Numbered from the stretch's first letter, positions 1,771 through 19,649 are shown. The stretch: DNA of 64,000 nt from Polyangiales bacterium (GCA_964202905.1 CAXNJO010000005.1:1-64000), one strand, 5' to 3'. Numbers and translations are program-made. Notes: generated from the sequence alone by a model not told the origin.

Positions 1771-4677
1771 TCAGGGCGCCGGGCGCCCGCGGCGGATGCG
1801 GCCGAGCTCGCGGTAGCGCTCGAAGAGCTGCGTCTGCCGCGAGCGCAGCGGCAGCGCGCGCCCGCGCACGACGAGGTGCGCGAGGCGCGTGCGCAACTCG
1901 AAGGGGTCGCCCGTCCACGCGGCGAGGTTCGCGACGCGGCCGGGCGCGAGCGTGCCGACCTCCGCGCCGAGCCCGAAGACGCGCGCCGGCTCGCTCGTGA
2001 GCGCGCGCAGCGCGATGGCGGGGTCGAGCCCGTCGGCGACGGCGTTGCCCGCCTCCTGACGCAGGTTGCGCAGGCCGTGCGGGCCATCGGTCGTGAGGAT
2101 CAGCCGCACGCCCGCGCGCGCGAGCAGCGCCGCGTTGTCGTAGCGCGTGCCGAGCCGCGCGAAGCGCTCCGGTAGATTCGCGAGCGGCTGCACGATGCAC
2201 GGCACGCCCGCTGTGGCGATGGCGTCGGCGACCTTCCAGCCCTCCTCGACGCCGCTCAGCACGAGGCGCAGCCGGTAGGCGCGCGCGAGGGCGAGCACGC
2301 GCAGGACGTCGTCCGCCCGCGCGACGCGCACCACGACGGGCACGCGCCCCGAGAGCGCCTCGGCGAGCCGCTCGAGATCCGCGCGCGAGACGCTCAGCTC
2401 GCGGACCCCGCGGCGCTCGTAGGCCGCGCGCTGCGCGGCGTAGAGGCGCGCATCGTCGAGCGCGTCGCGGAAGCGTCCGAGCATCGCCGGGCGCGCCCCG
2501 CCGCCCGCCTCGACGCCGCCATCGTCGAGGTCGACGTGCAGCGCGACGACCGGCGCGACGAGCGCGTCGTCGGGCCGCGCGCCCGCGAGATCGACCCACG
2601 CGCTCGTCCCCGCGACGAGCCCGCCCTGCGGCGTCGAGAGCGCGCTCGTCACGCCGCCGAGCCGCGCGACGGGCACGAGCACCGAGCTCGGGTTGTAGCC
2701 ATCCGCCGCGGAGAACGACGCGCGGATCGGGTCCGCCCCGCCCTCGGGCGCGTCGTCCACCGTCGAGGGCTCGAGCTCGATCTCGACGAGGCCGAGCGCG
2801 TGCCCGACGCCTACGAAGCCGGGCGTGATCGTGAGGCCCGTCGCGTCGATCACGGGCGCGTCCGCCGTGGCCGCGGGCGCAACTCCCTCCGCCGTGACGC
2901 TGACGATGCGTCCGTCGCGCACGACGAGCGTCGCGTCGTCGACGCGCGTCCCGTCGCCGACGAGCACGCGCGCGTGGACGAGCGTGAGCGCACCGCCGAA
3001 CACCGCGCCGCGCGGGCGACGCGCATACGGCTCCGCGAGCGTCGCGGCGGGCACGGCCGCGGGCGCAGGCGCGGCCACCGGCACGGCGGGCGGCAGCGAG
3101 GCCGACGCCTCGGGCAACGTCAGGCCCACCTCGAAGTCCGTGCCCGCGAAGGGGTCGGGCGCGCCGCGCTCGAAGGCGAGCCGCCCGTCGACGTACACGC
3201 GCTCGGCGCGCGCGTAGATGCTGAAGGGCGACGCGCTCCACACGACGACGTCCGCCATCTTCCCGGGCTCGAGCGTGCCCGTCATGCGGTCGACGCCGAG
3301 CGCCCACGCGGGGTTCGCGGTGACCCAGCGCAGCGCCCGATCGTCCGAGACGGGCGGCAGGCCGACGTCCTCGGCCGCGCGCACGCCCTTCGCGGCCTCC
3401 TGCGCGAGGCGCTGCACGAGCATCGCGCTGTCCGAGTGCATGATCGCGCGCACGCCCGCGTGCTCGAGGAGCGCGAGGTTCTGCTCGACGGAGTCGAAGG
3501 CCTCGAGCTTGAACCCCCACCAGTCGGCCCAGGTGCTCACGCTCACGTCCTCGGCCGCGAGCACGTCGCGGATCTTGTAGGCCTCGACCGCGTGGTGGAA
3601 CGAGCGGATGCGGAAGCCGAACTCGCGCCCGATGGCGAGCATCGTCAGCATCTCGTCCGCGCGGTAGCAGTGGTTCTGCACGAGCGTGCGGCCCTCGAGC
3701 ACGCCGACGAGCGCTTCGAGCCCGCGGTCACGCGCGGGCGGCGACGGCTCCGGCCCCGGGTCTTCCGGCGCGGCCGGCACCGCCGCGTCGCTCGCGCCCG
3801 TGTTCGCCGCCGCGACACCCGCATCGCCCACCTCGGCAGCGGCGCGCACGGCCGCGTCGTACGCGTCCTTCTTCACGCGCCACTGCCGCTGTCCGTGCTG
3901 CCAGTTGCGCCACGCCCGCGCGTACTCGACGGCCTGCTGGAAGGCGCGGCGATAGCCCGCGACGTTGCCCATGCGCGTCGAGGGGTTGCTGTGCCGCTCG
4001 CCGTAGATGCGCTTCGGGTTCTCGCCGCAGGCGATCTTCAGCGTGTCGGGCGCCTCGGGGAAGCGCATCTCCGCGGCGCTGCGGCCGAGGTGCAGCTTCA
4101 TCACCACGCCGCGCCCGCCGATCAGGTTCGCGCTGCCGGGCAGCACCTGGATCGTCGTCACGCCCGCCGCGAGCGCGCGCCCGAGCGCCGGATCCTGCGG
4201 CCAGAACGAGTCCTCCGCGCGCACCTCCGCCGTCACGGGGGACGTCGCCTCGTTGCCGTCCGAGGTCGCGTTCACGCCAGGCGCCGCGTAGACGCCCATG
4301 TGCGAGTGCGAGTCGATGATCCCCGGCGTGACGAAGCGCCCCGTCGTATCGACGACGGTCGCGCCCGCGGGGATGGTCACCTCGCTCTCGCTGCCGACGG
4401 CGCGCACGACGCCGTCCTCGAGCACGACCACACCGCGCTCGATCGTGCGCCCCGCGGCCGTCATCACGGTGCCGCCGCGCAGCACCACGGCCGGTGTCTC
4501 GGGCGGCATCCAGCGCGGCGACCGCTCGGCGAGCCAAGGCAGCGGCGCAAGCTCGACCTCTGCGCGCGGCGCACGCGGCGCGGGCGCAGGCGTCGTCGCC
4601 GCAGGCGGCGAACCGCACGCGCAGAGCGCGAGGATCAGGGCGACAGCGAGCGGACGGCGGGGCGCGGGGGCGATCAT
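1771..4677 (-). CDS. Lipoprotein with two fused amidohydrolase-family domains
   Basis: Lipobox LALCAC. Domain 1 has TPGIIDSHSH, KIACGENPK, HCYRADE, HHAVEAY, HSD and GTLEPGKMADVVVW. Domain 2 has TPGFVGVGH and GTLAPGRVANLAAWTGDPF. Confidence 0.9.
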   Translation of the reverse strand: MIAPAPRRPLAVALILALCACGSPPAATTPAPAPRAPRAEVELAPLPWLAERSPRWMPPETPAVVLRGGTVMTAAGRTIERGVVVLEDGVVRAVGSESEVTIPAGATVVDTTGRFVTPGIIDSHSHMGVYAAPGVNATSDGNEATSPVTAEVRAEDSFWPQDPALGRALAAGVTTIQVLPGSANLIGGRGVVMKLHLGRSAAEMRFPEAPDTLKIACGENPKRIYGERHSNPSTRMGNVAGYRRAFQQAVEYARAWRNWQHGQRQWRVKKDAYDAAVRAAAEVGDAGVAAANTGASDAAVPAAPEDPGPEPSPPARDRGLEALVGVLEGRTLVQNHCYRADEMLTMLAIGREFGFRIRSFHHAVEAYKIRDVLAAEDVSVSTWADWWGFKLEAFDSVEQNLALLEHAGVRAIMHSDSAMLVQRLAQEAAKGVRAAEDVGLPPVSDDRALRWVTANPAWALGVDRMTGTLEPGKMADVVVWSASPFSIYARAERVYVDGRLAFERGAPDPFAGTDFEVGLTLPEASASLPPAVPVAAPAPAAVPAATLAEPYARRPRGAVFGGALTLVHARVLVGDGTRVDDATLVVRDGRIVSVTAEGVAPAATADAPVIDATGLTITPGFVGVGHALGLVEIELEPSTVDDAPEGGADPIRASFSAADGYNPSSVLVPVARLGGVTSALSTPQGGLVAGTSAWVDLAGARPDDALVAPVVALHVDLDDGGVEAGGGARPAMLGRFRDALDDARLYAAQRAAYERRGVRELSVSRADLERLAEALSGRVPVVVRVARADDVLRVLALARAYRLRLVLSGVEEGWKVADAIATAGVPCIVQPLANLPERFARLGTRYDNAALLARAGVRLILTTDGPHGLRNLRQEAGNAVADGLDPAIALRALTSEPARVFGLGAEVGTLAPGRVANLAAWTGDPFELRTRLAHLVVRGRALPLRSRQTQLFERYRELGRIRRGRPAP

Positions 4678-4728
4678 GGCGCGCACGATCGCGCGCGGGC
4701 ACCGTGCGCGGCAAGCGTGGACGCCTCG

Positions 4729-5095
4729 TCACCCCCGAAATCGCTGGTTCAGGGGCCCGGGGCGCAGCCCGAGCTCGAGCGTGCGCGTCTCGGCCGTGTT
4801 CACGCTCGGGGCGATCTGGCCCCCGATGACGATCACCTCGGTCCCGGTGTAGACGGCGCACGCCGAGGCGCTCGGCGGACCGGGCGGGATCGCGCGCCAG
4901 GCGTCCATGACCGGATCGTACGCGCCGCCCGTGGCGGTGAAGGTCGAGCTCCCGCGGAAGAAGCCTCCCTGCACGACCAGCTCCGTGCCCGCCCAGAGCA
5001 AGATCCCGCGCTCGCGCGCCGCGGGCGCGCCAAAGCTCGTGAGGGCACGCCAGGTGCCGGTGGTCGGCTCGTAGCGCCCCCCGCCCGAGAGCGCG
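4729..5095 (-). pseudogene. Orphan 3' fragment of the Kelch-repeat gene
   Basis: Encodes ALSGGGRYEPTTGTWRALTSFGAPAARERG...LELGLRPGPLNQRFRG* with no start of its own; joined at 5095/5096 to unrelated sequence. Confidence 0.85.
4766..5095. repeat. 330-bp direct repeat, copy 1 (3' end of Kelch gene; partner 15710-16039)
   Basis: Manual alignment at constant offset 10,944 gives 10 mismatches, all within 4766-4922; 4923-5095 is identical to the partner. Confidence 0.97.
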
Positions 5096-5787
5096 AGGCG
5101 CTCTTTGTCGTGCTCTCGGCCATCGTCGTGAAGTTCTCCCGGCAGCGCGCCGACACCGCCGTCGAGAAGGTCGAGCGGCGCATTCGCAAGCGGCCGCCGA
5201 CGGAGTTCTTCGTGCGCAAGGGCCAAGAGCTCGCCGATCGCTGGGCCCTGCTCGACGCGGCGTGTCCCGATGTCTCGCCGGAGCCTCGCTTGTTCCAGGG
5301 CGACGCGCGCGATCTCCGCAACGTGCTCGGCCCCGGGCTCGCCGCGGACTTCATGCTCACCTCGCCGCCCTACGGCGGAACGTACGATTACGTCGATCAC
5401 CACGCGCGTCGCTACGCGTGGCTCGGCATCGACCCGCGCCCGATGAAGACGCGCGAAATTGGCGCGCGCCGTAACGTGTCCGAAGAAGAGGGCGGCAAAG
5501 AGCGCTGGGACAACGAGCTCGGTCATGCCCTCTCGAGCATCGTCGAAGTGAACCGCCCGGGTTCGCTCCTCGTGCTGTTGATGGGCGACGGTGAGTCGAA
5601 GGGCGAGCGCATCGACGCCGACGCGCAGATCGAGCGGCTCGCGCCTGACGCCGGCCTCGAGCCGGTCGCCATCGCCTCGTCGCCGCGCCCCGGTGATCGT
5701 GGCGAGCACTTAATGGCGCTCGGGGTGAACGCCCCGCCTGCGCCGGCTCAACCGGCAGGACGGCGCTCGAAGAACAGCCACTTGTAG
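5096..5787 (+). pseudogene. 5'-truncated site-specific DNA amino-methyltransferase (SPPY, N4-cytosine type)
   Basis: ...RLFQGDARDL...ADFMLTSPPYGGTYDYVDHH...EIGARR. The protein-like frame begins abruptly at the repeat boundary, with no start codon and no SAM-binding motif I. Confidence 0.8.
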
Positions 5788-6539
5788 TCGGAGAGCGGCG
5801 CAAGCGACGGGCTGAGCGCGAGCAACGCCTCCCCGGCGCGAAACAGCGGCGCGACGAGCGCGCGCGGCAGTTCCCGGAAGGCGAGCGCGTAGCGGACGGG
5901 CACGAAGAGCAGTTGGCCTCGATCGACGAGCCGCAGGCCGGTCGCCTCCACGCGGCGAGTCCACTCGCGAACGCTCATCTGCAGGATGCGCCGCAAGATC
6001 CGCGACTCGTGAATCGGCTCGACGAACAGCAGCCGTCCGCCCGGCCGCAACATCGAGTGCAGATGTTGAATGGCTCGGTCGAACACCGCGGGACTCGAGC
6101 ACGCGAGGGTCAGGCAGCCGAGCGAGAGCACGACATCGTAGCGGCCGAGGTGCTGGGGCTCCGGTGGGCTGAGCACACTCGCCACCTCGAACTGCGCCGC
6201 CACGCCCTCGTCGCGTGCGGACTCTCGCGCAGCCTCTACGGCATTCTCCGCGAAATCGAAGCCTCGCACGCTTGCCCCGCGCCGCGCGAGGTGCACGCTC
6301 GCGCGGCCCGTGCCGCAGCCGATGTCGGCGATCTCGAGGCCGCGTACCTCGCCGAGCACCTGGTCGAGCAAGGCCATTTGCAGCGCATGGAGCTCGGCAT
6401 TGTAGGAATTGCTCGGCCAGTTGCTGCGGGCGAGCCCGCGATAGCTCGTCGCCTTCATGTCCCAATAGCGCGGGCTGTCGTAGAGACCTTGCTTCTTCTG
6501 GCGATCGAGCAGGAGCTGCTTGAGTGTACGACCGCTCAC
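5748..6539 (-). CDS. Class I SAM-dependent methyltransferase
   Basis: IADIGCGTGRAS motif I and LRPGGRLLFVEP; GTG start overlaps the upstream stop (GTGA). Confidence 0.9.
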   Translation of the reverse strand: MSGRTLKQLLLDRQKKQGLYDSPRYWDMKATSYRGLARSNWPSNSYNAELHALQMALLDQVLGEVRGLEIADIGCGTGRASVHLARRGASVRGFDFAENAVEAARESARDEGVAAQFEVASVLSPPEPQHLGRYDVVLSLGCLTLACSSPAVFDRAIQHLHSMLRPGGRLLFVEPIHESRILRRILQMSVREWTRRVEATGLRLVDRGQLLFVPVRYALAFRELPRALVAPLFRAGEALLALSPSLAPLSDYKWLFFERRPAG

Positions 6540-7759
6540 GAAGAAGCCTCCGTGACGATGTGAATGGCCGCCATGGCAGCCGCGGCGCTCCGCTCGGCGT
6601 CCGCGCGATCCGTGCCTGTCGCGAGCACATGACCCACACGCTTCGAGCCATCGACGAGCGGATGTACGGTGTCGCCAGGCGTCACGAATACTTGTGCATC
6701 GACGATGTGCGGAGTCGCGCGCGCAGCGTCGAGGCCGTCGATCTGCTTGACGCGTCCCGGGGTACCGACGAGGAAGCGCCCGACCGCACCGCCGTGAAGC
6801 GCCCCCTCGGGGCCGGCGGACTCCCACGCTGGCCGTCCGAGCGCCACGCCGACGATGCGTCGATAGAGGGACACGCCACTCGCGAGCAGCGTGACGTCCG
6901 GGTCGAGGCCGCCGCCGAGCCGATGTGCCGTCTCGACGAGAAAGGCACCCTCCGCGCCGAGCCGGAGCTGCGTATACGAGGGCCCACGCACCACGCCGAG
7001 CCCGCGCAGGCCTGCGGTGCTCGCGTCGACGAGCATGGCCTCTTCCGCGGGAGTGATCGCTGCGGGATAGGCCTCCGCGTAGGTGATCCCGGGCGGATCA
7101 GGGTAGTGCGTGATGATGCGCTCGGTGACACACAGCACCTCGGTCGTGCCGTCACGGGTATAGGCGTTCACAGAGAACTCGCGGCCCGAGATGAAGGCCT
7201 CGACGACGGCGACGCGATGACCCGTCGCACGCTCGGCGGCCTCGAGCGCCTCGCGGACGGCGAACGCGAGCTCCGCTTCCTTCATGACCACGCGCACGCC
7301 CCTCTGCCCCCAGCCGCGCGTCGGCTTCACGACCACTGGTAGGTCGTGATGTGCGACGAACTCCACGGCTCCCGAGAGCGCGCGAATCACCTCGAAGGCC
7401 GGTGAGGGCGCGCGGCCGGCGAGGTAGCGCTCGCGCATCACGTCCTTGTGCTGGCAGCCGCGGACGACCTCGGGAGTCGCGTAAAAAGGCAGCCCGAGCG
7501 CCTGTGCCGCCTGCGCGACTGGGAGCACGGCGTGGTCTGCGCCGCAGGTGGTCAGTCCATCGACTCGGTGGGTACGCGCGGCGCGCGCGATGCCATCGAC
7601 GTCTTGGGTGCTGCAGACCTCGAATGCGTCGCAGAGGGCTGCCCCCGCCGAGCTCGGGTTGGCGTCCGCGCCGACGACGAAGAGCCCCTCCGACTTGCAG
7701 AAGCGCAGCAGTCCGAGCTGCGGATAGCCCGTCGCCACCACGAGGAGCCTTGCGCTCAT
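6536..7759 (-). CDS. ATP-grasp domain protein (L-amino-acid-ligase-like)
   Basis: HKDVMRE, PVVVKPTRGWGQRGV, VVEAFISGREFSV, LVETAHRLGG; ATG overlaps the GT2 stop. Confidence 0.9.
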   Translation of the reverse strand: MSARLLVVATGYPQLGLLRFCKSEGLFVVGADANPSSAGAALCDAFEVCSTQDVDGIARAARTHRVDGLTTCGADHAVLPVAQAAQALGLPFYATPEVVRGCQHKDVMRERYLAGRAPSPAFEVIRALSGAVEFVAHHDLPVVVKPTRGWGQRGVRVVMKEAELAFAVREALEAAERATGHRVAVVEAFISGREFSVNAYTRDGTTEVLCVTERIITHYPDPPGITYAEAYPAAITPAEEAMLVDASTAGLRGLGVVRGPSYTQLRLGAEGAFLVETAHRLGGGLDPDVTLLASGVSLYRRIVGVALGRPAWESAGPEGALHGGAVGRFLVGTPGRVKQIDGLDAARATPHIVDAQVFVTPGDTVHPLVDGSKRVGHVLATGTDRADAERSAAAAMAAIHIVTEASS

Positions 7760-8718
7760 GGCTCTCGCGGCGGCGTCGCGGAGTCCGCCGCGCCGAGCTC
7801 CTCCGCAATGCGATAGAGCGGTCGATCTTGCGTCTGCTCGAAGATTCGACCGACATATTCGCCGATCACGCTGAGCGCGATGAGCTGGAGTCCGCCGATG
7901 ATCACGATGGCGGCGAATAGGCTCGTATATCCGCCAGTGATGTCGACGCCGATGAGCTTCTGGCCAATCCGGTAGAGCGCGAGCGCGATCCCCGCGACCG
8001 CGAACAGCGCGCCGACCGCCCCGATGATGCGGAGAGGGCGCATGCTGAAGCCGACCATCAGGTCGAAGCTGTGATTGATGAGCTTCCACAGATCGTATTT
8101 GCTGTGGCCGGCGCGCCGGGTGTCGTGCGCTACGGGAATCGAGACGCCCTTGGCGCCGCTCCACTCGGTGAGCGCGCTGAAGAACTTGCGCTTCTCTGGG
8201 AGGCCCGCGATGAAGCGCGCGACCTCGCCATCGAGAAGCCGAAAGGTCGTGACGTCCTGCGGGAGCTGAATGTCGAGCACATGCCGCATCAGCCACACCA
8301 TCAGCTTCGACGCGAGCACTCGGTGAGGCGGATCGCGCCGCGCCATGCGGGCGCCGTACACGATGTCGAAGCCCTCGCGGCCCTTCGCGAGCAGCTTGGG
8401 AATCTCTTCGGGGGGATTCTGCAGGTCGCCGTCGAGCTGTAGGACTTTACGACCTCGCGTGCGCAACATCCCCGCTTGCACCGCAGCCTCTTGCCCAAAC
8501 GTGCGGGTGAGGCGCAGCACGCGGAGCCGCGGATCGGTACGGCTCAGCTCGCGCAGGTGCAGGAAGGTCGCATCGCGACTGCCATCGTCGACGAACAAGA
8601 CCTCGAAAGACTGCCCTTCTCCCTCGAGCACCTCGACGAGTCGCGCGAAGAGCTCACGGACGTTCCCCTCCTCGTTGAGCACGGGAATCACCACGCTGAT
8701 CTCCGGCGCTGCGCTCAT
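7756..8718 (-). CDS. GT2 polyprenyl-phosphate glycosyltransferase (ArnC/GtrB-like)
   Basis: ISVVIPVLNEE, FVDDGSRD, FGQEAA, DGDLQNPPEEIP, RRAGHSKY and two C-terminal TM helices ending IGEYVGRIF. Confidence 0.92.
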   Translation of the reverse strand: MSAAPEISVVIPVLNEEGNVRELFARLVEVLEGEGQSFEVLFVDDGSRDATFLHLRELSRTDPRLRVLRLTRTFGQEAAVQAGMLRTRGRKVLQLDGDLQNPPEEIPKLLAKGREGFDIVYGARMARRDPPHRVLASKLMVWLMRHVLDIQLPQDVTTFRLLDGEVARFIAGLPEKRKFFSALTEWSGAKGVSIPVAHDTRRAGHSKYDLWKLINHSFDLMVGFSMRPLRIIGAVGALFAVAGIALALYRIGQKLIGVDITGGYTSLFAAIVIIGGLQLIALSVIGEYVGRIFEQTQDRPLYRIAEELGAADSATPPREP

Positions 8719-9878
8719 CGCGAGTCCGTCGCGCTCGAGCGACTGGCCCGCGCATCGGCGAGGGCCTCGACGAGGCCGCTGACGACTACGCTCACGTCGT
8801 CGAGCGGGAGGTCCGGCCAGAGCGGCAGTGTGACGGTGCGCTCTCCGAACAGCGCCGCGTGCGGAAAGGCGTCTCGCGCATGGCCGAAGCGCTCGCGGTA
8901 GTAGCTGAGGGTGTGCACGCTGCGATAGTTCACCGCGCAACCGATGGCGCGCTCGCCGAGCCCAGCGAGCACGGCGTCTCGAAGATCTGCCGGGACCAGC
9001 GTCGTGAAGAGGTGATGCGCGCTCCGGCCGGAGCGCCCGACGAGCTCTACCTCCGCGACCGATGCGAGCTCGCGCTCGTAGCGCTCGACCAGCGCGGCCC
9101 GCCGCTCGCGCTGCGCGTCGATGCGGTCGAACTGAGGCAAGAGCAGCGCCGCGTCGAGGTCGGTCATCGCCGCCTTGTAGCCGAGCTCCACCATGTCCCA
9201 GTGCGCGTAGCGCACTCCGTAGCGGCTCGCGGCGTCCTTGGTGACGCCGTGATTGCGCAGCCGCCGGAGCTCAGCCGAAAAGCGCCCATCGCGGACCGCG
9301 AGCGCCCCGCCGTCGCCGCAGGTGAGGTTCTTCGTCGCGTAAAAGCTCATGGCGGTGAGGTCCGCGAGCTGCCCAGTCCGCGCGCCGTCGCGCATGGCCT
9401 CGAGGGAGTGGGCGGCGTCATCGATCAGCGCGAGTCCGTGCCGATCGGCGATCGCGCGCAGCGCAGGCAAGTCAGCGAGCTGGCCATACAGCCCCACGGC
9501 GATGATGGCGCGGGTCCGGGGCGTGATGGCGGCCTCGACGCGCGCCGGATCGATGAGTCCAGTCCGCGGGTCGATGTCCGCGAAGACGGGAGTGGCACCG
9601 ACGTGCAGCGGCGCGTTCGGGGTCGATACGAAGGTCATCGGCGTGGTGATGACCTCGTGCCCGGGGCCAATCCCGAGCACCCGCAGCGCAAGGATGAGGG
9701 CCTGCGAGCAGTTCGTGACTCCGATCACGTGCTCGACGCCGAGATACTCTGCGAGCCTGCGCTCGAACTCCCCCACGCGGGGCCCGAGCGTTAGAAAGAC
9801 CGACTCGATCGTCTGACGCACACTCGCGAGCTCGGCTTCACCGAGAGTGTGCCGGAAGAACTCGACGGGACGACGCAC
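8715..9878 (-). CDS. DegT/DnrJ/EryC1/StrS PLP-dependent sugar aminotransferase (ArnB-like)
   Basis: GPGHEVITTPMTF, IDDAAHS, SFYATKNLTCGDGG (PLP lysine), TLPLWP. Confidence 0.95.
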   Translation of the reverse strand: MRRPVEFFRHTLGEAELASVRQTIESVFLTLGPRVGEFERRLAEYLGVEHVIGVTNCSQALILALRVLGIGPGHEVITTPMTFVSTPNAPLHVGATPVFADIDPRTGLIDPARVEAAITPRTRAIIAVGLYGQLADLPALRAIADRHGLALIDDAAHSLEAMRDGARTGQLADLTAMSFYATKNLTCGDGGALAVRDGRFSAELRRLRNHGVTKDAASRYGVRYAHWDMVELGYKAAMTDLDAALLLPQFDRIDAQRERRAALVERYERELASVAEVELVGRSGRSAHHLFTTLVPADLRDAVLAGLGERAIGCAVNYRSVHTLSYYRERFGHARDAFPHAALFGERTVTLPLWPDLPLDDVSVVVSGLVEALADARASRSSATDSR

Positions 9879-9926
9879 GGGAGACCTCGCGAGGTGGGGG
9901 AGTCATGGTGGGATTCGGCCGCGTGC

Positions 9927-10964
9927 TCAGGAGAGAATCTTGCCGTCGAGGGCGAGTCGCTCGTAGGTGCGCTCGATCTCGCTGAGAAACAGATATTGCT
10001 GCCGCGTGTAGCCACGGCGATCATCCGGGTCGATCTTGCCCTCGCGGAGCGCGAGGAGCACCTCTGCGATGCCGTCGTCGATGCTCCTCTCCGGAAGATA
10101 GCCGAGCTCGCTGCGGATGCGGGCGAAGGATACGTTGTAGTCGCGTAGCTCCGGGTCGGTCGGCGCCATGACGATCTCGGTGCCTGGCACCTGGTCGCGG
10201 ACGCGATAGGCGAGCTGCTGAATGCGCACGTTGTTGTCGTCGCCACCGGTGTTGAACACACGCCCCGTGACCTGCGCGATGGGGCGCTCGAGCACGAGCG
10301 CGAACGCGCGCGCAGCGTCGTTCACGTGCAGAAATGGGCGCCACTGCCTGCCGCCGCCCTCGACCGTGATGCGTCGACTCACATAGGCATTCTTGGTCAT
10401 CACGTTCACCGCGAGATCGAAGCGCGTCCGGCCGGACACGCCGAACAGGGTCGCCAGGCGGAGCGTGGTGATGCTCATCGGTGTTCTTGCCGCGAGCTCC
10501 CCCAGGCTCGACTCAGACGCCGCTTTGCACTTCGAGTAGAGCGAGACCGGCCGGAGCGCGGAGGTCTCGGTCAGGGCCTCTTCTTGCCCATGCCCGTAGA
10601 CACTGCAGGAAGACGCGAAGACGAAGCGCGCGACCCCAGCCTCTGCGGCCTTCGCTGCGACGCGCGCGCAGCCCTCGAGGTTGATGCCGCGGGTCAGCTC
10701 GGGAGCGATCTCGCAGGTCGGATCGTTGGAGATCCCGGCGAGATCCACCACCGCATCGAACCCGTCGAAGTCCGCCGTGCTGACTCCGCGCACGTCCGCC
10801 CGCTGCAGGGTCAGCTGGTCGGAGTGTTCGCGCAGCGGTCCGGCGAGCGGCTCCTTCCCGAAGTAGAAGCGGTCGAGCGCCGTCACGCGATGACCTGCTG
10901 CGAGGAGCAGCGGGATCAGGCTGGAGCCGAGGTAGCCGCCGCCGCCAGTGACGAGGACATTCAT
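9927..10964 (-). CDS. NAD-dependent nucleotide-sugar epimerase/dehydratase (extended SDR)
   Basis: VLVTGGGGYLGS, FASSCSVYG, YSKCK (YxxxK), WRPFLHVND. Confidence 0.95.
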   Translation of the reverse strand: MNVLVTGGGGYLGSSLIPLLLAAGHRVTALDRFYFGKEPLAGPLREHSDQLTLQRADVRGVSTADFDGFDAVVDLAGISNDPTCEIAPELTRGINLEGCARVAAKAAEAGVARFVFASSCSVYGHGQEEALTETSALRPVSLYSKCKAASESSLGELAARTPMSITTLRLATLFGVSGRTRFDLAVNVMTKNAYVSRRITVEGGGRQWRPFLHVNDAARAFALVLERPIAQVTGRVFNTGGDDNNVRIQQLAYRVRDQVPGTEIVMAPTDPELRDYNVSFARIRSELGYLPERSIDDGIAEVLLALREGKIDPDDRRGYTRQQYLFLSEIERTYERLALDGKILS

Positions 10965-11016
10965 CGGAGCTGATTAGCACTTCGAGACCGTACTCGGATA
11001 GTCGTTCGTCCGCGTG

Positions 11017-12735
11017 TCACGGCAGGTGCTCGAGGCCGGGCTGCCTGCCGGCGCGTGGATCGTGCAGGCGATACACCGGGCGTCCGGGGAAGCGGCGGCG
11101 GACCGACGCGAGCGCGTCGGGGGTGTCACGCAGGATCAAGATCTCGTCGCCGAAGTCCGGCTCGGGACGCCGCCACTCGAATACCCAAGTGCCACGCTCC
11201 GCGTACTGCGGATAAGCGGACCACACCACGAAGAACTGCGCGGCGAGCACGACCGCCGGGCGCTCGCGCGCGGGAATCCCGTCCTCGAGCGACGCATAGA
11301 GCGAGCGCTGTGGCTCGGCCTGGGCAAACAGCGCGACGCTCTGCGCGACGTCGAAGCCTACTTGTACAAGCAGCCAGGTGCTGAGTGCGGCCGCGGTCCA
11401 GCCGCCCGTCGGGAGACGGAGCGCGCGGAGGCGATCGAGGGAGTGCGCGAGGCCCGAGACCGCCAAGATCGTGAGCGGGACTACGCACTCCGAGTGATGA
11501 ATGGGGCCCACGGAGTGGATGCCGTAGTTGACATGCGCGAGCCCGAGCAGCAGCGCGGCGAGCACGCCGAGCGCGAGCGCGGCGTTGAGTCGATCACGCG
11601 GTGCGCCGAGCACCACGAGCAAGACGCCGAGCGGACCTGCGAACCACACGCCGAGTCGCAGCGCATTGAAGGCCACGTTGGAGCCGAAGCGCTCCCACCA
11701 CGATGGATGAATGGTGACGGTGGCATACGCGCCCTCGCTGAAGCGCGCCGGGACCCAGCTCCCGGTGACCGCGTACGAGTGCGCGACGAATACCAGCCCC
11801 GCGACGAGCAGCGCAGCGAGCGCGGCGAGGAAGGCTGCGCGCCGTGCGCCGCCTCCGCGCAGTGCGGCGTGGCCCTCGAGCGCTGCGAGCGGGCCGAGCA
11901 ACATCGCCGACTCGAAGGGACGACAGAGCATCGCCAAGCCGACGCTCGCGCCGAGCAGCGCGCCGCGCAGCCGACTCGAGCGCTCGAGGTTCGACACGTG
12001 GAGCGCGAGGGAGAGCGCGATGAGGGCGCGCGAGTGAAGGTGACCGTGGGTGGTCATCGAGAGCACGAAGGCCATCGGGGAGGTCAGAGCGACCAATGCG
12101 CCGAGCGCGCCCCAGGCCACGGAGAGCCGCTTCGAGAGCACGTAGGCGATGCACGGCACCGGCAGCGCGGCCGACACGGCGAACAGCCAGTTGCCCGAGT
12201 GCGTGAGCTCTGCGAGGCACCACGCGAGCTGCGTCCCGAGCCAGTCCATGCTGGTGATCGAGTGCCCTCGCACGTACATGAAGAGCGGCGGGAACGCATC
12301 GAGGCTGAACGGGACCTCGACGAGCACGCGGCCCTGCGCGAGGGCTTGGCCGCCGAAGCGCGCGGCCCACTCGTCGTCGGTCACCGGATAGCCGCTCAGG
12401 ATGAGCGCGTTCGAGAGCCGCGCGATGACCGCGCTCATCACGCCGAGAAACACCAGCAGCGCCCGCTTCTCCACGTTCGTCAGCGCAGCGGCGCGCGCCT
12501 GCATCGACACGAGCAAGCGGCCGATCGGTGCGCGATAGCCGTAGCCGAGCAGCGCGCCCCCTGGAGTCAGCAGAAACGCAAGCGCCAGCCAGAGGTTCGC
12601 CTCGCCCTCGCTGATGCGCGTGAAGGGCGGCTTGAACACGACGAAGAAGCCGCGTCCGACCGCAGAGATGGCGGCAAAACAGAGGACCGCGAGCCAGCCG
12701 CTCAAGCGCGCGACCAGGTCGGGGTGTACGCGCAT
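11017..12735 (-). CDS. Polytopic membrane glycosyltransferase, GT-C fold (ArnT/PMT-like)
   Basis: More than 10 hydrophobic segments, acidic loop YPVTDDEW after an early TM, 'MLCRP' motif and a soluble C-terminal domain; heads the sugar operon. ATG 12735 chosen as start. Confidence 0.65.
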   Translation of the reverse strand: MRVHPDLVARLSGWLAVLCFAAISAVGRGFFVVFKPPFTRISEGEANLWLALAFLLTPGGALLGYGYRAPIGRLLVSMQARAAALTNVEKRALLVFLGVMSAVIARLSNALILSGYPVTDDEWAARFGGQALAQGRVLVEVPFSLDAFPPLFMYVRGHSITSMDWLGTQLAWCLAELTHSGNWLFAVSAALPVPCIAYVLSKRLSVAWGALGALVALTSPMAFVLSMTTHGHLHSRALIALSLALHVSNLERSSRLRGALLGASVGLAMLCRPFESAMLLGPLAALEGHAALRGGGARRAAFLAALAALLVAGLVFVAHSYAVTGSWVPARFSEGAYATVTIHPSWWERFGSNVAFNALRLGVWFAGPLGVLLVVLGAPRDRLNAALALGVLAALLLGLAHVNYGIHSVGPIHHSECVVPLTILAVSGLAHSLDRLRALRLPTGGWTAAALSTWLLVQVGFDVAQSVALFAQAEPQRSLYASLEDGIPARERPAVVLAAQFFVVWSAYPQYAERGTWVFEWRRPEPDFGDEILILRDTPDALASVRRRFPGRPVYRLHDPRAGRQPGLEHLP

Positions 12736-12813
12736 GCCGGGTCGGCTCGCGACACTGCCGGTGGGTACGCGTGAAGTCAACGAACGCGGCTCGGCGAGCT
12801 GTCCGCTCGCGGT

Positions 12814-12838
12814 GTGTAGCCCATCCGATCGCCCCTTT
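12814..12838 (-). other. Weak candidate oriIS end of the IS91/ISCR element
   Basis: Minus strand AAAGGGGCG-ATCGGATGGG-CTACAC about 200 bp downstream of the tnp stop. Same position and spacing as the recalled ISCR oriIS pattern GCG-TTTGAACTTC-CTATAC, but the core is degenerate. Confidence 0.3.
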
Positions 12839-13034
12839 GGTCGTGCTCCATGACGCTGCGTCCTCGCGGAACGCTACGCGAGCGTGCCGCAGAGCACAAT
12901 CTCGACATCGATGCTGCTCTGCCGGAGGCTCGTCGACGTGGCTCGAACTCCCACTTTCAGCGCATGTTCGCGCGGCGGACGCATGTCTCCCTGGCCGCGC
13001 TGTGCGCAGCCTGTCGGCTCACGGTGCTCTCCGC

Positions 13035-14631
13035 TCAACTGAACACGAGTCGCAGCTGTCCATACGCGGACGCTCGTGGCTCGGCTTCGGGCGGCGCTCT
13101 CGGCGGCGCTCTGGCGTAGCCGCGCTCACCGAGCACGCGTGAGACATCGTCGGGTTTCTTCGCAACCTCCACGATCCGCAGCTGTCCACCGCACTTCTCG
13201 CACTTCAAGATGTCGACCGCGAACTCCCGCTGCAGTAGCCAGCTCCACGGGTGTCGCGATGGCTCGGCCGTCTTCTTCGTGGCGCTCTTCGCTGACGTCG
13301 TCGGCTCGTCCGCCTCGTCGAACAGGGGGAGCTGCTTCGGCGGCGCGGCCACCTTCCTCGGCACGACCTCCGCACGGAGCGACGAGTGCCCAGCGAGGAC
13401 ACCCAGATACCTCAGCAAGTGAAAGCGCGGCGGCGGCACGAGCACACACACACGTGCTCGGCGTGCTCGGCTCGCTTCGCGCGCTCTGCGCGCGCTCTCC
13501 GCGCGATGGCCTGATGAAGTCTGCCGGCGAGAGCACGACGGCGTGCGTCCCGTCGCGTCAGGCCTTCTTGAAGCGGCATACGACCTGTCCGTCATCGGGC
13601 AGCGACAGTCGATCGAGCGCGAGCGGAGGCCGCGCCATGTAGCGCAACACGTGCTCCAGGCGCTGCCGATCGCGACCGTCGATCGCCACCTCCGCGTGCA
13701 CGTTCACGCCGCCGAACTCCGCGAGCGCGCGCACCTCTGAACGCACGGCGCGTACAGGCTGCACGAGCTTGAGCGTCTTTTGACCCGCGCGCTCACCGAG
13801 CAGCTGTACGTCGCCCGCGGACGCCGCGTAACACGAGGCGAGGACCGGCTGATCGTGCGTGAGCTCCGCCGGCTCATCGCCGAGTCCGTCGAGCATGCGG
13901 CCGTGCGCGAGCAGGACCTTCACGATGCGCGCGTGCGTCCACTCTGCGACCTGCTCCACCTCGTCGAAACTCGGCGCGCCGAGCGTGTGGAACGCGAGCG
14001 CGCCGCTCGGTGCGCGCGCGTAAACGCCATCGAGAAATAGCGAGTGCGCATGCACGTTGAGGCGCAGTACGGAGTCGCTGCGCTGAATGAAGGTCAGTGC
14101 GCCAACGTGCGCCTCGTCGACGCTCGGCAGGCCGAGACACGCCTTCGCTCGGCGTCGGAGAGAGCTCGAGACCGCGCCCGTGAACGCCGACATCACCTCT
14201 GCCCAAAGTCTCCTGTCGTAGCCGAGCAAGCTGCGTAGTCGCCACGGGAGCGAGTACACCCACTGTCGCGCCGGCACCTCGGGGAGCACATCATCAACAA
14301 GGTGCGCGGCCGTGTCTGACATGCGGCGCGCGACGCACGACGGACAAAAGCCGCGCTTCTTGCACGAGAACGCGACGACTAGCTCTTCGCCGCAGTCGCA
14401 ACACCGCAAGTGCACGAGGCCATGCTCGAGCAGCCCGCACTCGAGATACGCCTCGAGCTCGCGCACCACGAACCGCGGCAGCCCGCCGGCCTCCTCGGCG
14501 CGCTCGAGGAATGCTGGCCAGTGCGCGCGCACCACGCGGTGAAGCACAGTGTCCTCCGGACGCCGCCGCGCATAGCCATCCGCGCGAGGTGCAGGAGCAA
14601 GAGCCGAGCAAGCAGCGACAACGGCAGACAC
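13035..14631 (-). pseudogene. IS91-family (ISCR-like) rolling-circle transposase, inactivated
   Basis: Zn-binding CGLLEHG..RCCDC...SCKKRGFCPSC, RQWVYSLP, HUH motif NVHAH, YMARPP and HLLRYLGV. In-frame TGA at 13558-13560 (KKA*RDGT) and a 55-bp frameshifting insertion at 13458-13512. Confidence 0.92.
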
Positions 14632-14659
14632 CGCCGCTCATCGGCGCATCACCTGGCCC

Positions 14660-15171
14660 AGTGCTTGACATGCTCGGATGAATCCGCCGAGCGGGTCGCG
14701 CTCTCAACCGGTCGGAGCGAAGAAGGCGTGCTCGTCGACTTCGACGTCGCTGACTGGGTCCTCGGCGCAGCCTTCGGCCCCAGGGACGGCGAAGTATCCA
14801 CCGAGGAACTCCGCACCATCGCAGCGTCGATGGTTCACGTTCAGCTCTATGGAACCGTCGTTCGAGCGGGTCGCACCGAGCTTCACCTTGCCGTGTGCCC
14901 CGTAGGCGACGTCGACAGCGATGCCGACTCCGTAGCGCTGGACCTCTCGTCTCCTTCGACGTGACGAGCCGAGTCCCCGCGCGCGGGGCAGCGGAGCCGC
15001 GCGCAACTCGCCGCGTGGAAGGCAGCGAAGGCCGGCTGGTACAAGCCTGAGCTCGAAGCGCAGCTCGAGGCGTTGGCGGCGCTCGAGCTCGTCGAGCCGA
15101 CGCCTGTCGCGGCATCGCGCAGAGGTCGAGCGAAGCCGCCGGGCGCGGCGCGCGGCCGAACGCGGAAGTGA
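14660..15171 (+). pseudogene. Gene remnant of unknown function adjacent to the transposase 5' end
   Basis: Protein-like frame ...EEGVLVDFDVADWVLGAAFGPRDG...LDLSSPST*RAESP...AQLAAWKAAKAGWYKPELEAQLE...RK* continues in frame across an internal TGA at 14962-14964; left boundary approximate. Confidence 0.45.
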
Positions 15172-15347
15172 GCCGCAGGCGACGTGAGCACTGCGCGGCG
15201 GGCGCTTTGGCGCAGGCGCCGCTACGTCCGCGTCGGCCTCGGGCACGTCGTCCACGGCGCGCGGAGCGTCCCTATCGCCGCGGCGCCGCGCGACCAGCAG
15301 CTCGCGGGCGACGCCGCGCGCGGCGCACGCGACGCCGGCTCCGGGGT

Positions 15348-15590
15348 CTACACGCCGCCGATGCACACCATGGCGTTGCCGCCGCCGTCGCCCTGCAGCG
15401 ATTCGTCGCGACACTGCCAGCCGTCGCCGCGCTCGGCCTCGCAGGCGGACGTCGCCGTGCAGTCGCGCAAGCACAGCCCGGCGCTGCGCGAGATGCAGCT
15501 GAACCCGGTCGGACAATCGGCGTTGTTGGCGCGGGACGGCGTGCAGACAACGTCCGCGGGAGCCCCGCTGGCCGTGCACGGCGAGCGCCG
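15348..15590 (-). pseudogene. C-terminal fragment of a Cys-rich myxobacterial protein
   Basis: Manual translation SPCTASGAPADVVCTPSRANNADCPTGFSCISRSAGLCLRDCTATSACEAERGDGWQCRDESLQGDGGGNAMVCIGGV*; in-frame stop upstream at ~15599 and no credible start. Confidence 0.6.
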
Positions 15591-15684
15591 CCGGCGCCCT
15601 ACGCGCGCACCGCCGCGCAGACGAGGTTCGCGCCCGGATCCGTGCCTCCGCCCCCGGCCACCCGCGGCCTCGCGGAGGGCGGCG

Positions 15685-18676
15685 TCAGGGAGGAGGCGGG
15701 GGCACCGTGAGCCCGAGCTCGAGCGTGCGCGTCTTGGCCGTGTTCAACTCCGGGGCGATCTGGCCCCCGATGACGATCACCTCGGTCCCGGTGTAGACGG
15801 CGCACGCCGAGGCGCCCGGCGGACCGGGTGGGATCGCGCGCCAGGCGTTCATGGCCGGATCGTACACGCCGCCCGTGGCGGTGAAGGTCGAGCTCCCGCG
15901 GAAGAAGCCTCCCTGCACGACCAGCTCCGTGCCCGCCCAGAGCAAGATCCCGCGCTCGCGCGCCGCGGGCGCGCCAAAGCTCGTGAGGGCACGCCAGGTG
16001 CCGGTGGTCGGCTCGTAGCGCCCCCCGCCCGAGAGCGCGCTCACGTCGTCACTGCCGCCGCCCCAGACGATCAGCTCGCTCCCCGACCACACGCCGAGGG
16101 AACCGGGTGCGATCGCGCCACGCGCGGGGGGCGCGCCGAACCCCGGGAGCGTGGACCAGGTGTTCGTCGCCGGGTCGTAGCGCGCGCCGTCCCCGAGCGC
16201 GGTCACGGTCTCGCTATCGATGGTCTTCTGGAGGCCGCCCCACACGACGACCTCGCTGCCGGTCCACGCGACGGCGGCCCCGTAGCGGTGCGGCGGCGCG
16301 CCCGTCGTCGCGATGGGGCTCCACGTGTTCGTCCCCGGATCGTAGAGGGCGCCATCCCCGAGGGAGAACGACTGGAACGAGCTCGAGAAGCGCCCGCCCC
16401 AGACGAAGACCTTCGACCCCGTCCAGACGACCATCGGCCGCTCGCGCACGGACGGAGCGCCGCTCATCTCGGTGTTGTAGGAACATGTTGAAGGCGGGGT
16501 CGTAAAGAAACCCATCCTGCAAGGAGGTCATCGCGACGCCGATCCCACCGACACCGCCCCAGACGAAGAACCGGCTCCCCGTCCACACGGTCCCCATCCC
16601 GACGCGGCCGCCGATCGGCGCCGCAATCGCGCTCTCCGACCACGTGTCCCCAACGGGGTCGTAGGCGAGCACGGTCGACGGCGCGTAGTTCGACGGCATC
16701 GAGCCGAAGCCACCCCACACGAGCACTCGCGGGTTGGTCGCGTCGGCCATCCACGCGCAGGCGTGCGCAGCGCGGGGCGAGGGCATCGGGGCCCGCGCCG
16801 AGACCGCGCCGCCCCCGTCCGGCGAGACGGAGCCGCCGTCGAACGGCGCACCACCGTCGAATCCGAGATCGGGAATCCCACCATCGAATCCGAGATCGGG
16901 AATCCCACCATCGAATCCGAGATCAGGAATCCCACCATCGAATCCGAGATCGGGAATCCCACCGTCGAATCCCGCGTCCGGAATCCCAGCATCCGGATCC
17001 AAGGAACAGCCCATGCCGGGGTAGACACTGATGTTCCCGTCGTTGCAATCCCCCGGAAATGCCACCCAGCCGGGAATTTCCTCGCACCTCGTGACCGCAT
17101 CCTCGGTGAGGCCGTATCCATCCCCGTCGAAGTCGAGGTAACGCACGAACGTGGCCAAGTCCTCGTCGCGCGCGCCGTCGCAGTCGTCGTCGCGCCCGTT
17201 GCAGACCTCCGGGACACTCCGCACCTCGCCGTCACAGGCGATCACGCCGCCCACGCACAGGGTGGTGCCCCGGACACACTCGCCAGTGTCTCGACCGCAG
17301 CGAAAGCCCGCGCCGATCACGTCACCGTCGTCGACGAAGCCGTTGCAGTCGTCGTCGAGTCCGTTGCAGTTCTCGGGCTCGGGGCTGCTGCCGCCCGTGC
17401 ACACGGGGGCCCCGCCCACGCACAGGCTGACCCCCGCCACGCACTCTCCGACGCTGGTGCCACAGGGCCCGAACGCCCCCTCGTCGAAGCGTCCGTCGCA
17501 GTCGTCGTCGATCCCGTTGCAGGCCTCCGGGAGCGGGGTGCACACGTCGACTCCCCCGTCTCGGCCGCCCGCATCGACGCCACCGTCGTCGCGCGGGAGG
17601 CACCGGGCCTCGACGTTCACCGAAGGATCGGCGTCGTCGCAGTCGCGGCCCTCGAGGACCCACACCGCGCGGTCACAGGTGCTGGGAGTCTCGAGCGGGC
17701 GCTCGCAGACCTCGCGCGTCGTGGCGTCGTCGCCGAACCCGTCGGCGTCGCAGTCCGCGAAGAAGGTCGTGAGCACGCCCTCGTCGATGCGTCCATCGCA
17801 GTCGTTGTCCAGGCCGTCGCACGTCTCCGTGACCGGGCCGGTCGCCCCGCCGCAGCCCGCCTCCCACAGCCCGGGCGTCCCGAGGCAGCGCTGCGTGCCC
17901 GGGCGGCACTCGCCCGTCGTCGAGCCGCAGGCGCGCGCCTCCCCCGTGCCGCACTCGCAGGCTTCGTCGACCGCGAGGTTGCAGTTGTCGTCGACGCCGT
18001 TGCAGAGCTCGGTCGCGCCGACGAAGCGCTGTGGGTTCGCGTCGTCGCAGTCGTTGCAGGTCGTCGTCGCGCCGAGGGGAATCCGACAACCCTGTTCCGT
18101 GATGGTCAACGGCCCGCGCCCGTCGCCGTCCGTGTCCGCGCACGAGATGGCCGCGACCTCCTCGTCGACGCGCCCATCGCAGTCGTCGTCGAAGCCGTTG
18201 CAGGACTCGATGCCCCCCGCGTTGATCGCGCGGCGCGTGTCGTCGCAGTCCGAGCCACAGCGCATCGGGCCGTTGCAGCAGCCGAAATACGGCTCGCCGT
18301 CGCCGTCGGCGTCCGGGCCGACCGTCGCGTCGTCGCAGTCCTCGTCGTCCGCATCGCAGACCTCGATCGCCCCGGGGAACCGCGACGGGTCTAGGTCGTC
18401 GCAGTCCGAGCCGCCGCACGCGGCGCTCGGGACGCCGTCGCCGTCGTCGTCGGGGCAGACGAACCGATCCGGCCCGAAGTCGGGGGGTCCCTCGTCGACG
18501 CCGAGATCGGCTGCGCCGTCGACGCTCGCGTCGACGCCGAGGTCGCCGCCGTCGTCCGGCACCCGACCCCCCACGCCGCCGCACGCGGACAGCAGCGCGC
18601 CCACCCCGAGGAGCAGGGCCAGGACGGAGGGGCGGAGTCTCAGTCGGACGCGCCGTACCCGAAGCGGAAGATGCAT
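15685..18676 (-). CDS. Large lipoprotein: putative metal-binding (MopE-like, DCDD..PGA.E.C) repeats plus C-terminal Kelch beta-propeller; frameshift near 16482
   Basis: Lipobox LLSAC, many E.CNG.DDDCDG.DE repeats, and Kelch blades VWTGS.VFVWGG...YDP.TNTW. The frame switches between ORFs 16214..19003 and 15685..16515 at YDPAFNM/SYNTEMSGAP. Confidence 0.85.
15710..16039. repeat. 330-bp direct repeat, copy 2 (in the 3' end of the full-length Kelch gene)
   Basis: Matches 4766-5095. Confidence 0.97.
16851..16985. repeat. 27-bp coding tandem repeat x5 (GIPDLGFDG linker)
   Basis: Unit CCACCATCGAATCCGAGATCGGGAATC; four near-perfect copies and one degenerate copy, no spacers. Confidence 0.95.
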
Positions 18677-18950
18677 CTGGACCTCCTCCTCCAGGACGTC
18701 GGCGAGGGTCCGCCGCGCTTGGGGGCGCGATCGTACGCGTACGCGCCACCTTTGACCACCGCGCCGCGAGGGCCGCACGCGCCCGCGACCGACGCGTACG
18801 ACCTCGAGAGCCCGCCGGCCGGCCGGCCTCGGCGCGCGCTCGGCGACCTCGAGGACCAAGGGGCCAGCGGGGGCCTGACGGGGATCCGCGACGAGCAGGG
18901 CAGGCGAGGCGCGAGGCGGGCCGCGCATGCGGTATCGTCGGGCGCCCGCG

Positions 18951-19649
18951 ATGCGACACGTCACGCCGCCACGGCCTCGGCGCCGCAGCCTCGCGCGCGA
19001 CACACGCGGCGTCGTCTACGTCGAGTTCCTCCTCGCCTTCGTGCCGATCTTCACGCTCTTCCTCGGGATCGCGCAGCTCGTGCTGCTCTGGGGCGGGCGC
19101 CTCGTCGTCGGCCACGCGGCGACGCGCGCGGCGCGGGCAGCGGCCGTCGTGCTCGACGACGACCCGCGCTACTACGACCGCGAGCCGCGCAACGCCGTGA
19201 GCGGCCGCGCGCTCGAGGCGTCCGACCTGTTCGCGGCGTTCGCCCGCCTCGGCCTCGGCGGCGCCGCGCCGTCCGCGCCGACGGCCGCCGTGCTCTCGCG
19301 GCGCGCGACGATCGAGCTCGCCGCGGCGCTCACCGTCGCGCCGCTCGTGACGCGCGGCGGGCCGCGCAGCCTCCGCGACAACCTCGTGCGCGACCCGCTC
19401 ACCGAGGTCGCCACGCGCGTCCGGGCCGACCTCGACGTCGCGATCGACGGCGTCGTGAACGAGCCGCGCACCGCGCGGGACGACGTCGCCGAGCCCGTGA
19501 CCGTCACCGTGCGCTACCGCTACGGCTGCGGCGTGCCCGTCGCGCGGATGCTCGTCTGCCCGGGCGGCGTGAAGGCGCTCGTGGCGCACGCGACGCTCCC
19601 CAACCACCGCGCCGCGCTCGACTACGCGACCGCCGGCTGGGCCGAATAG
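18951..19649 (+). CDS. tadE: TadE-like pseudopilin
   Basis: ARDTRG|VVYVEFLLAFVPIFTLFLGIAQL prepilin cleavage site with E+5, followed by HAATRAARAAAV. Confidence 0.85.
   Translation: MRHVTPPRPRRRSLARDTRGVVYVEFLLAFVPIFTLFLGIAQLVLLWGGRLVVGHAATRAARAAAVVLDDDPRYYDREPRNAVSGRALEASDLFAAFARLGLGGAAPSAPTAAVLSRRATIELAAALTVAPLVTRGGPRSLRDNLVRDPLTEVATRVRADLDVAIDGVVNEPRTARDDVAEPVTVTVRYRYGCGVPVARMLVCPGGVKALVAHATLPNHRAALDYATAGWAE

Follow-up and report, generated by a model that had tools for sequence, protein, structure and literature searches.

The window analysed here comprises the first 64 kb (64,000 nucleotides) of the 405-kb contig C5 of a Polyangiales bacterium (GCA_964202905.1, CAXNJO010000005.1:1-64000), whose assembly consists of 19 contigs and 5.68 Mb with a GC content of 73.5%. 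It contains a candidate gene-capture island, in which an element resembling the ISCR (insertion sequence common region) elements of the IS91 family lies between two direct copies of the 3' part of a chromosomal gene with Kelch and MopE repeats. Along the minus strand the order is as follows: the Kelch/MopE gene, three patches of 1,032 bp in all, the ISCR-like element, six cargo genes, a piece of a DNA methylase gene, a second piece of the Kelch 3' end, and an amidohydrolase gene (Table 1). Lake-water metagenomes hold near-identical DNA, and relatives of the window proteins and of the transposase carry Polyangiaceae or Myxococcota labels.

An earlier note on this DNA, made from the sequence alone, had proposed this gene order and explained it by ISCR-style capture. 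On reanalysis the order proved correct, with five amendments. The second 330-bp copy of the Kelch 3' end was borne out by alignment, and the methylase piece is indeed truncated at the repeat edge and convergent on the operon; it lies on the plus strand. The "two gene remnants" placed between the Kelch gene and the transposase exist as fragments, but there are three patches: a lipoprotein-gene remnant, a piece also found on contig C2, and the segment 14678-15194. The reading frame of the Kelch gene, described as full, shifts near position 16486.

Table 1. Features of the island and of its flanks (positions in the window)
Feature	Position	Strand	Basis or remark
Two-domain amidohydrolase, flanking, host-type	1771..4686	-	GC content at third codon positions (GC3) at the 92nd percentile of the genome
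Repeat copy 2	4766..5095	-	Kelch 3' end again, 330 bp; next come 11 codons with a stop (4729-4765) and after them the amidohydrolase
5'-truncated SPPY DNA methyltransferase	5096..5787	+	C-terminal 229 aa; convergent on the operon; cut exactly at the repeat edge 5095/5096
Cargo gene 6, class I S-adenosylmethionine-dependent methyltransferase	5748..6539	-	Family match
Cargo gene 5, ATP-grasp ligase with L-amino-acid-ligase C-terminal domain	6536..7759	-	Family match
Cargo gene 4, glycosyltransferase family 2 (GT2) polyprenyl-phosphate sugar transferase, ArnC/PgfS-like	7756..8718	-	Family match
Cargo gene 3, DegT/ArnB-type sugar aminotransferase	8715..9878	-	Family match
Cargo gene 2, NAD-dependent sugar epimerase/dehydratase	9927..10964	-	Epimerase, 143.9 bits
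Cargo gene 1, large membrane protein	11017..12735	-	Weak match to a putative glycosyltransferase family
ISCR-like IS91-family element	12812..14677	-	Ter boundary ~14677, ori-type end 12812; ends from copy alignments
Patch 1, lower GC	14678..15194		Abuts the ter side of the element
Patch 2, 127-bp fragment	15195..15321		Matches C2:497164-497290 in this genome at 96.9% identity; sharply bounded on either side
Patch 3, host-like GC	15322..15709	-	Lipoprotein-gene remnant 15351-15584
Repeat copy 1	15710..16039	-	Joined without a break to the gene body; 330 bp from the Kelch 3' region
Kelch/MopE-repeat gene body (anchor)	16040..19003	-	Pfam Cu-binding_MopE and Kelch matches

The direct repeat is ungapped, has 10 mismatches, and is sharp-edged on both sides of both copies. 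BLAST of the 330-bp sequence against the 5.68-Mb assembly returned these two copies (97.3% identity) and no third. Each copy is in register with its chromosomal neighbour, copy 1 with the gene body and copy 2 with the downstream flank. Between the end of the repeat and the stop there are 7 further codons in copy 1 and 11 in copy 2, so the C-terminal tails are unlike. The anchor gene thus reads from 19003 to 15685 through repeat copy 1 and then through 7 codons of patch 3 to a stop at 15685-15687. The insert unit has 10,944 bp, of which 10,614 bp are unique and the rest is one copy of the repeat. Over approximately 5100-15000 the GC content drops to 0.65-0.71 from 0.74-0.77 in the flanks.

All 10 mismatches fall within the 157 bp nearest the 3' end of the gene, and the remaining 173 bp are identical. 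Counted as seven events, such clustering in 157 of 330 bp would have a probability of ~0.006 if the events were random. Eight codons are altered, seven of them nonsynonymously and one synonymously. At the seven differing residues the closest relative of the Kelch protein, P0002 (63% identical, 436 aa), matches copy 2 in four cases and copy 1 in none. This favours copy 2 as the resident 3' end and the 3' part of copy 1 as an incoming fragment that had diverged beforehand. A duplication born identical is disfavoured because the mismatches are clustered and P0002 agrees with copy 2 only.

We also inspected Logan contigs, which come from low-depth metagenomes. A contig of run X2 over 4666-5018, with a depth of about 4x, carries copy-1 letters at 4872, 4885 and 4905 beside the amidohydrolase flank. 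This mosaic allele implies that the tract boundary varies in the population. In the 11-codon tail the contig also has one base inserted behind 4758 and another behind 4764. A minus-strand open frame of 326 codons (4729-5709), probably not a gene, is antisense to the methylase fragment and goes on in frame into repeat copy 2; outside its Kelch part it matches no family. A promoter scan of 4600-16200 gave 0 promoter-like sites, and we therefore make no claim of an outward promoter.

The frame change in the Kelch gene is indicated by a switch of the GC3 frame at 16460-16520 together with the local sequence, whereas P0002 is continuous in frame through the equivalent point. It reflects either a true pseudogene or a sequencing error. 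The stretch 16470-16520, at the frame change, is GC-poor and apparently contains one extra base. Upstream in the gene, 16824-16993 consists of five to six tandem 27-nt units encoding a 9-residue repeat (GFDGGIPD-like), which also opens P0002.

The ends of the ISCR-like element were defined by aligning its copies within the genome, as the earlier note had suggested: the ori end comes from 12 aligned copies and the ter boundary from four independent flanks. Both ends could be placed in this way. The two ends are unlike and have no terminal inverted repeats. The ori end closes with the motif ...CTAyrCGC in 11 of the 12 copies, the window copy alone reading CTACACAC, and is preceded by subterminal hairpins with 27 predicted pairs, three of which show compensatory changes. 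The same terminal motif occurs ~240 nt past the transposase stop of a 51%-identical relative on a contig from a Polyangiaceae metagenome-assembled genome (MAG). The flanks of the window copy have no short direct repeat in common that would mark a target-site duplication, and there is no orf121-like gene in the 45 bp before the transposase start. Two public contigs of ~7.5 kb, one assigned to a Polyangiaceae MAG and one to a Phycisphaerales MAG, both carry the 51%-identical transposase relative and are 99.99% identical, which means either a binning conflict or a recent transfer.

The transposase in the window is broken. Its N-terminal part (14631 to 13561) is ended by a TGA at 13558-13560, and the C-terminal part (approximately 13457 to 13038) lies in another frame behind a 55-nt insertion. 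With Pfam Zn_Tnp_IS91 and Y2_Tnp the N-terminal part reaches 63.2 and 32.8 bits, each exceeding its Pfam cut-off, and an intact copy of 518 aa on contig C15 reaches 57.1 and 84.1 bits, respectively. H-A-H and R-Y motifs, which we take to be those of such transposases, are visible in the translation. The NCBIfam model of ISCR clade Ia (NF052416) gives 208.5 bits for the window copy and 307.5 for the intact one, below its cut-off of 925, and the intact copy spans this profile end to end (positions 13-485 of 509). The IS91 equivalog model gives 57.8 and 84.5 bits, also below its cut-off (125). The assignment to the IS91 family made in the earlier note is thus upheld, with the ISCR profile scoring above the IS91 model; judged by these profiles, the element is ISCR-like and not a member of clade Ia. 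The TGG to TGA change is private to the window copy. The frameshifting 55-nt insertion is shared with a C3 copy and partly with a C17 copy; given a subfamily with this common insertion, defective copies seem to have multiplied. Since the window transposase is dead, any activity was either earlier or supplied in trans.

About 30 fragments matching the element, with 73-92% identity, are scattered over contigs C2, C3, C6, C15, C17 and C18. Between the C15 and C6 copies, identity of 99.7% extends over at least 830 bp of DNA beyond the ter side and, in the other direction, only to 2 nt outside the ori end, where the two diverge; three units on C2 have a ter-side flank in common. Such flank sharing is compatible with one-ended transposition, but may also reflect segmental duplication. 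The C15 and C6 units (C15:81781-84433 and C6:388510-391161) hold the only intact 518-aa transposase, and their identity runs to the C15 contig end. At C2:663729-683452 a segment of 370-400 bp occurs four times in direct order with 92-94% identity. Three of the four belong to units that are 98.6-99.6% identical, each with a truncated ISCR copy whose ter end is 57 bp away, and the fourth, without ISCR, stands at the ori-side end of the array. Between the C2 units are a resistance-nodulation-division (RND) efflux system, a Ser/Thr kinase, a transporter with forkhead-associated and ATP-binding cassette domains (FHA-ABC) and a YceI gene. From its arrangement, this looks like a multi-module ISCR array with an anchor of its own. 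Decayed ISCR clusters are present at C3:295-306 kb, C17:5-29 kb and C18:171-476; they include three near-identical solo ori-end pieces of ~300 bp.

The six cargo genes are tightly packed and translationally coupled, and the ori end of the element lies 76 bp from the start codon of the first one. Judged by the families matched, the cargo looks like an Arn-type polyprenyl-phosphate aminosugar pathway combined with amino-acid ligation and methylation. None of the six genes has a paralog in the genome, and their GC3 values are at the 9th-26th percentile of 1,804 long open reading frames (ORFs), compared with the 92nd of the amidohydrolase. Homologs of the ATP-grasp protein were found in 40 of the 301 genomes of the order examined and in none of the three from the organism's own family, the best being 62% identical. 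A five-gene core (epimerase, aminotransferase, GT2, ATP-grasp and methyltransferase) recurs in the same order in four of six relative loci with 42-69% identity. At none of these six loci does a transposase, methylase, Kelch or amidohydrolase gene adjoin the operon. In no relative examined is the operon ancestral at the present site, a situation that the earlier note had named as contrary to capture.

The intact form of the cut methylase is about 440 aa long, and the fragment retains the SPPY motif. It is 80% identical at the nucleotide level and 72% at the amino acid level to a full-length paralog at C1:133445-134770. Two full-length proteins from metagenomes match it with 86-87% identity, and nothing in 300 other genomes of the order exceeds 59%. 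Judged by such identities, the donor is a related but different lineage or replicon. One X2 contig that matches 5109-5358 perfectly and has 118 extra letters upstream was considered as an intact donor methylase and rejected as a chimera of k=31 assembly: the 30 extra letters examined match the C1 paralog exactly, and the switch falls at a 31-mer common to both genes (5108-5138).

As to the patches, the remnant in patch 3 corresponds to ~78 aa of a 112-aa Cys-rich lipoprotein family with the signal peptide lost; it is 59% identical to 112-aa lipoprotein ORFs in four genomes of the order, and no Pfam family scores above the cut-off. Patch 1 may hold the 3' end of a gene stopping at 14704. It has no Pfam match and no paralog in the genome by tblastn; its minus-frame peptide has no homolog in the 301 genomes, where the plus-frame peptide was not searched.

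ISCR1-linked integrons offer the closest published parallel. They consist of a 3' conserved segment (3'-CS), ISCR1, its origin end (oriIS), variable captured genes, and a partial second 3'-CS (PMC6218425, PMC3575428). In the accepted model, aberrant rolling-circle replication forms a circle of cargo, partial 3'-CS and ISCR1, which is then rescued by recombination in the 3'-CS (PMC6834847, citing Toleman et al. 2006); capture and rescue are also described in PMC3575428, PMC6218425 and PMC13181058. The topology seen here matches the published descriptions, as the earlier note had claimed (PMC6218425, PMC3575428, PMC6834847). The likeness covers a complete anchor, an ISCR with its ter side towards the anchor, the ori end, cargo, and a partial second anchor. 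Unlike in those integrons, a piece of a chromosomal gene for a secreted protein serves as anchor instead of a mobile platform's 3'-CS, anchor and element are separated by a mosaic of 1,032 bp, the cargo is an aminosugar operon in place of resistance genes, and the host is a lake myxobacterium. The transposase is also far under the clade Ia cut-off, and the anchor is used once and not recurrently.

With IS91, IS801 and IS1294 the element shares an HUH rolling-circle transposase with a zinc-binding N-terminal domain, unlike ends, subterminal palindromes and the lack of target duplication, and those elements also mobilise DNA beyond the ter end (PMC13181058). It differs from them in having no conserved GTTC/CTTG-type tetranucleotide at the ori ends and no orf121-like gene upstream. 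One-ended transposition accounts for 1-14% of events in IS91 and IS1294/IS1294b and for about half if tnpA acts without Orf121 (PMC13181058). ISCR-type elements beside variable captured genes, catabolic and other non-resistance genes among them, are known from environmental bacteria, including Myxococcota (PMC13393415, PMC12772301), e.g., ISCR8 on environmental plasmids (PMC13393415). Their contexts are integrons or plasmids, whereas here a chromosomal gene fragment and a glycan operon are involved. The literature searched contained no ISCR case with a chromosomal gene fragment as anchor or a glycan operon as cargo; for a glycan operon in Myxococcota the nearest case was an ISCR28-sul4 module in a Myxococcota MAG (PMC12772301).

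The sequence shows the repeat, every junction, the identity, ends and orientation of the element, the truncated genes, the mosaic, a cargo of foreign composition, and other copies in the genome with nothing but the ter-side flank in common; read-through, a circle, a donor and a crossover are what we infer from it. Replication would start at the ori end and run back through the transposase, and repeated failure to stop at the ter end would drag along ter-side DNA. The stack so left would be patch 1, the 127-bp C2 piece, the lipoprotein remnant, and then 330 bp of Kelch sequence. The unit would have landed in an SPPY methylase gene convergent on the aminosugar operon, on another replicon or in a related strain. 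Further read-through would then copy the 3' half of the methylase gene and the six cargo genes, ending 76 bp upstream of the first gene, and circle closure would join this endpoint to the ori end. Finally, a single crossover between the circle, with its 330-bp Kelch fragment, and the 3' end of the chromosomal Kelch/MopE gene would integrate the circle, duplicate the 330 bp, give the gene a new 7-codon tail and leave the old tail with copy 2. As the element is now defective, the island would stay in place as long as recombination between the repeats does not remove it.

When a non-replicating plasmid integrates by a Campbell-type single crossover, it duplicates the homology around the insert, leaving one truncated and one complete copy. 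The locus has the same direct duplication, with one truncated and one complete gene copy; the difference is that the circle would be natural and apparently made by a transposable element. The layout fits capture: the anchor is present in two direct copies, complete in the first and cut on the cargo side in the second, with the ISCR-like element and the cargo between them, and the ori end points towards the cargo, so that the opposite orientation, named in the earlier note as a refutation, is not found. The Kelch piece outermost in the mosaic, the ori end beside the cargo, and the methylase cut at the repeat edge all fit ISCR capture. We consider ISCR-like rolling-circle capture followed by a single homologous crossover the best explanation, with a probability of roughly 0.5.

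Several observations weigh against this explanation. No empty site, with the Kelch gene directly followed by the amidohydrolase gene, was found in 41 relatives, seven amidohydrolase loci, three genomes of the family or the protein collection, and an exact 30-mer of the repeat has no match in metagenome contigs. The amidohydrolase (971 aa, two amidohydrolase modules) has orthologs of 55-66% amino acid identity in seven genomes from other families of the order, none with a Kelch neighbour, and synteny is therefore too poor to yield an empty site. The same-genus genome has no Kelch ortholog (best match 45%), and the metagenome contigs and protein collection hold no Kelch relative closer than P0002. 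A donor with an intact methylase beside the operon was likewise absent from the genomes of the order, the metagenome contigs and the six operon loci; an ATP-grasp protein scan of genome contigs and a methyltransferase scan of metagenome contigs found nothing. As the cut methylase is so distant from its own paralog, the donor was not the orthologous locus of this lineage. The polarity of the repeat copies is deduced from four sites (P ~0.06). If the incoming fragment had already diverged, differences would be expected in the 173 identical bp as well, so that gene conversion is an extra assumption. A stop codon and an insertion that shifts the frame leave the island's transposase dead, and only this copy deviates in the terminal ori motif. 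The 11 ori-end flanks share no conserved target tetranucleotide, one of them reading CTTG; this need not count against the mechanism, because a flank left after circle closure or capture need not be a target. The patch junctions have no shared cleavage-like tetranucleotide motif, the Kelch anchor is used once in the genome, with no reuse with other cargo, and transposition of ISCR elements has never been shown experimentally according to PMC6218425 and PMC13393415. For the history told in the earlier note, the layout, the truncation, the foreign cargo and the ter-side mosaic hold, while its circle and crossover are deduced, and neither the empty site nor the donor it pointed to was found.

Some of these points fit other explanations as well. 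The crossover could have been of the Campbell type and the circle made otherwise, as a small plasmid, an excised island or circularised transformed DNA, with the ISCR-like element and the patches as passengers. The topology needs only a circle with 330 bp of homology, and the defective element, the lack of an observed circle junction or donor, and the unproven status of ISCR transposition (PMC6218425) all agree with such an origin. However, the ISCR-like element is the sole mobility gene in the island and is placed exactly as the capture model demands, its ori end next to the cargo and its ter side next to the mosaic; the Kelch piece is the outermost part of that mosaic, where a last layer of read-through would be expected. 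We therefore treat a circle of other origin as possible but rather unlikely. An illegitimate insertion, through end joining or template switching at staggered breaks, could have duplicated the 330 bp with neither a circle nor a homologous crossover. A long target duplication gives the same order of body, repeat, insert, repeat and tail, and there is a weak 12-bp microhomology between the Kelch and methylase sequences at 5084-5095. The copies would be identical at birth, though, whereas the mismatches are clustered and the four changes that can be polarised are all in the copy attached to the gene, with none in the dead fragment, which makes this route improbable. In bacteria it is unusual for a target duplication to extend over hundreds of bp.

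The remaining two explanations concern the assembly and the repeat itself. An intact Kelch-amidohydrolase junction and a separate 10.9-kb circle, present as a mixed population or misjoined in the assembly, could have been linked across the 173-bp tract. The integrated island and the free circle plus empty site differ only in linkage across these identical 173 bp. Logan contigs bridge 5095/5096 (X3, 4957-5144), 4765/4766 (X2) and the ori/cargo junction (X1 and X3), so the junction 5095/5096, for which the earlier note had asked for spanning reads, is spanned by contigs; still, these short contigs bridge only junctions that both forms contain, and the free circle with an empty site would hold the same 5095/5096 junction. 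Against an artefact, contigs of up to 1 Mb among the 19 resolve many ISCR copies, which suggests reads spanning 173 bp, and we judge it very unlikely. The near-zero cover of X2 over 6028-11760 is uninformative, as no contig joins across the gap, and contig joints with sides of only 20-23 letters were dismissed. Copy 2 could instead be the remnant of a second, paralogous Kelch gene whose 5' part was destroyed on arrival of the island and whose similarity was kept by gene conversion; Kelch repeats are abundant in this group, and the 173-bp identical tract looks like conversion. But the similarity breaks off abruptly inside the coding region on the 3' side, with 7 to 11 codons left before the stops, and on the 5' side precisely where the methylase is cut, and apart from P0002 the protein collection holds no paralog of the Kelch gene above 46% identity. 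There is thus little to recommend a paralog remnant, which we regard as extremely improbable.

Nearly all that is known of ISCR elements comes from antibiotic-resistance regions in Proteobacteria (PMC6218425, PMC13393415). The ISCR-type capture mechanism itself is already known; what sets this locus apart is the surface-glycan cargo, the ordinary chromosomal anchor and the freshwater myxobacterium as host. Every part of the anatomy that the capture-and-rescue model predicts is present at the locus, here in an uncultured organism. With an intact 518-aa transposase copy and many dated relics in the same genome, the family is a candidate for testing ISCR transposition outside clinical strains. 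A wider proposal, which we hold to be quite doubtful, is that an ISCR-like family native to the Polyangia of lakes regularly acquires short chromosomal gene fragments at its ter side as portable homology arms, so that captured operons recombine by RecA into related strains. If it were true, this would be a general route for swapping surface-glycan operons, and the mosaic repeat of run X2 and the fourfold C2 array would be traces of its repeated use. If the capture-and-rescue reading of the present locus is right, surface-glycan genes can move among related environmental strains without phage, integrase or plasmid functions.

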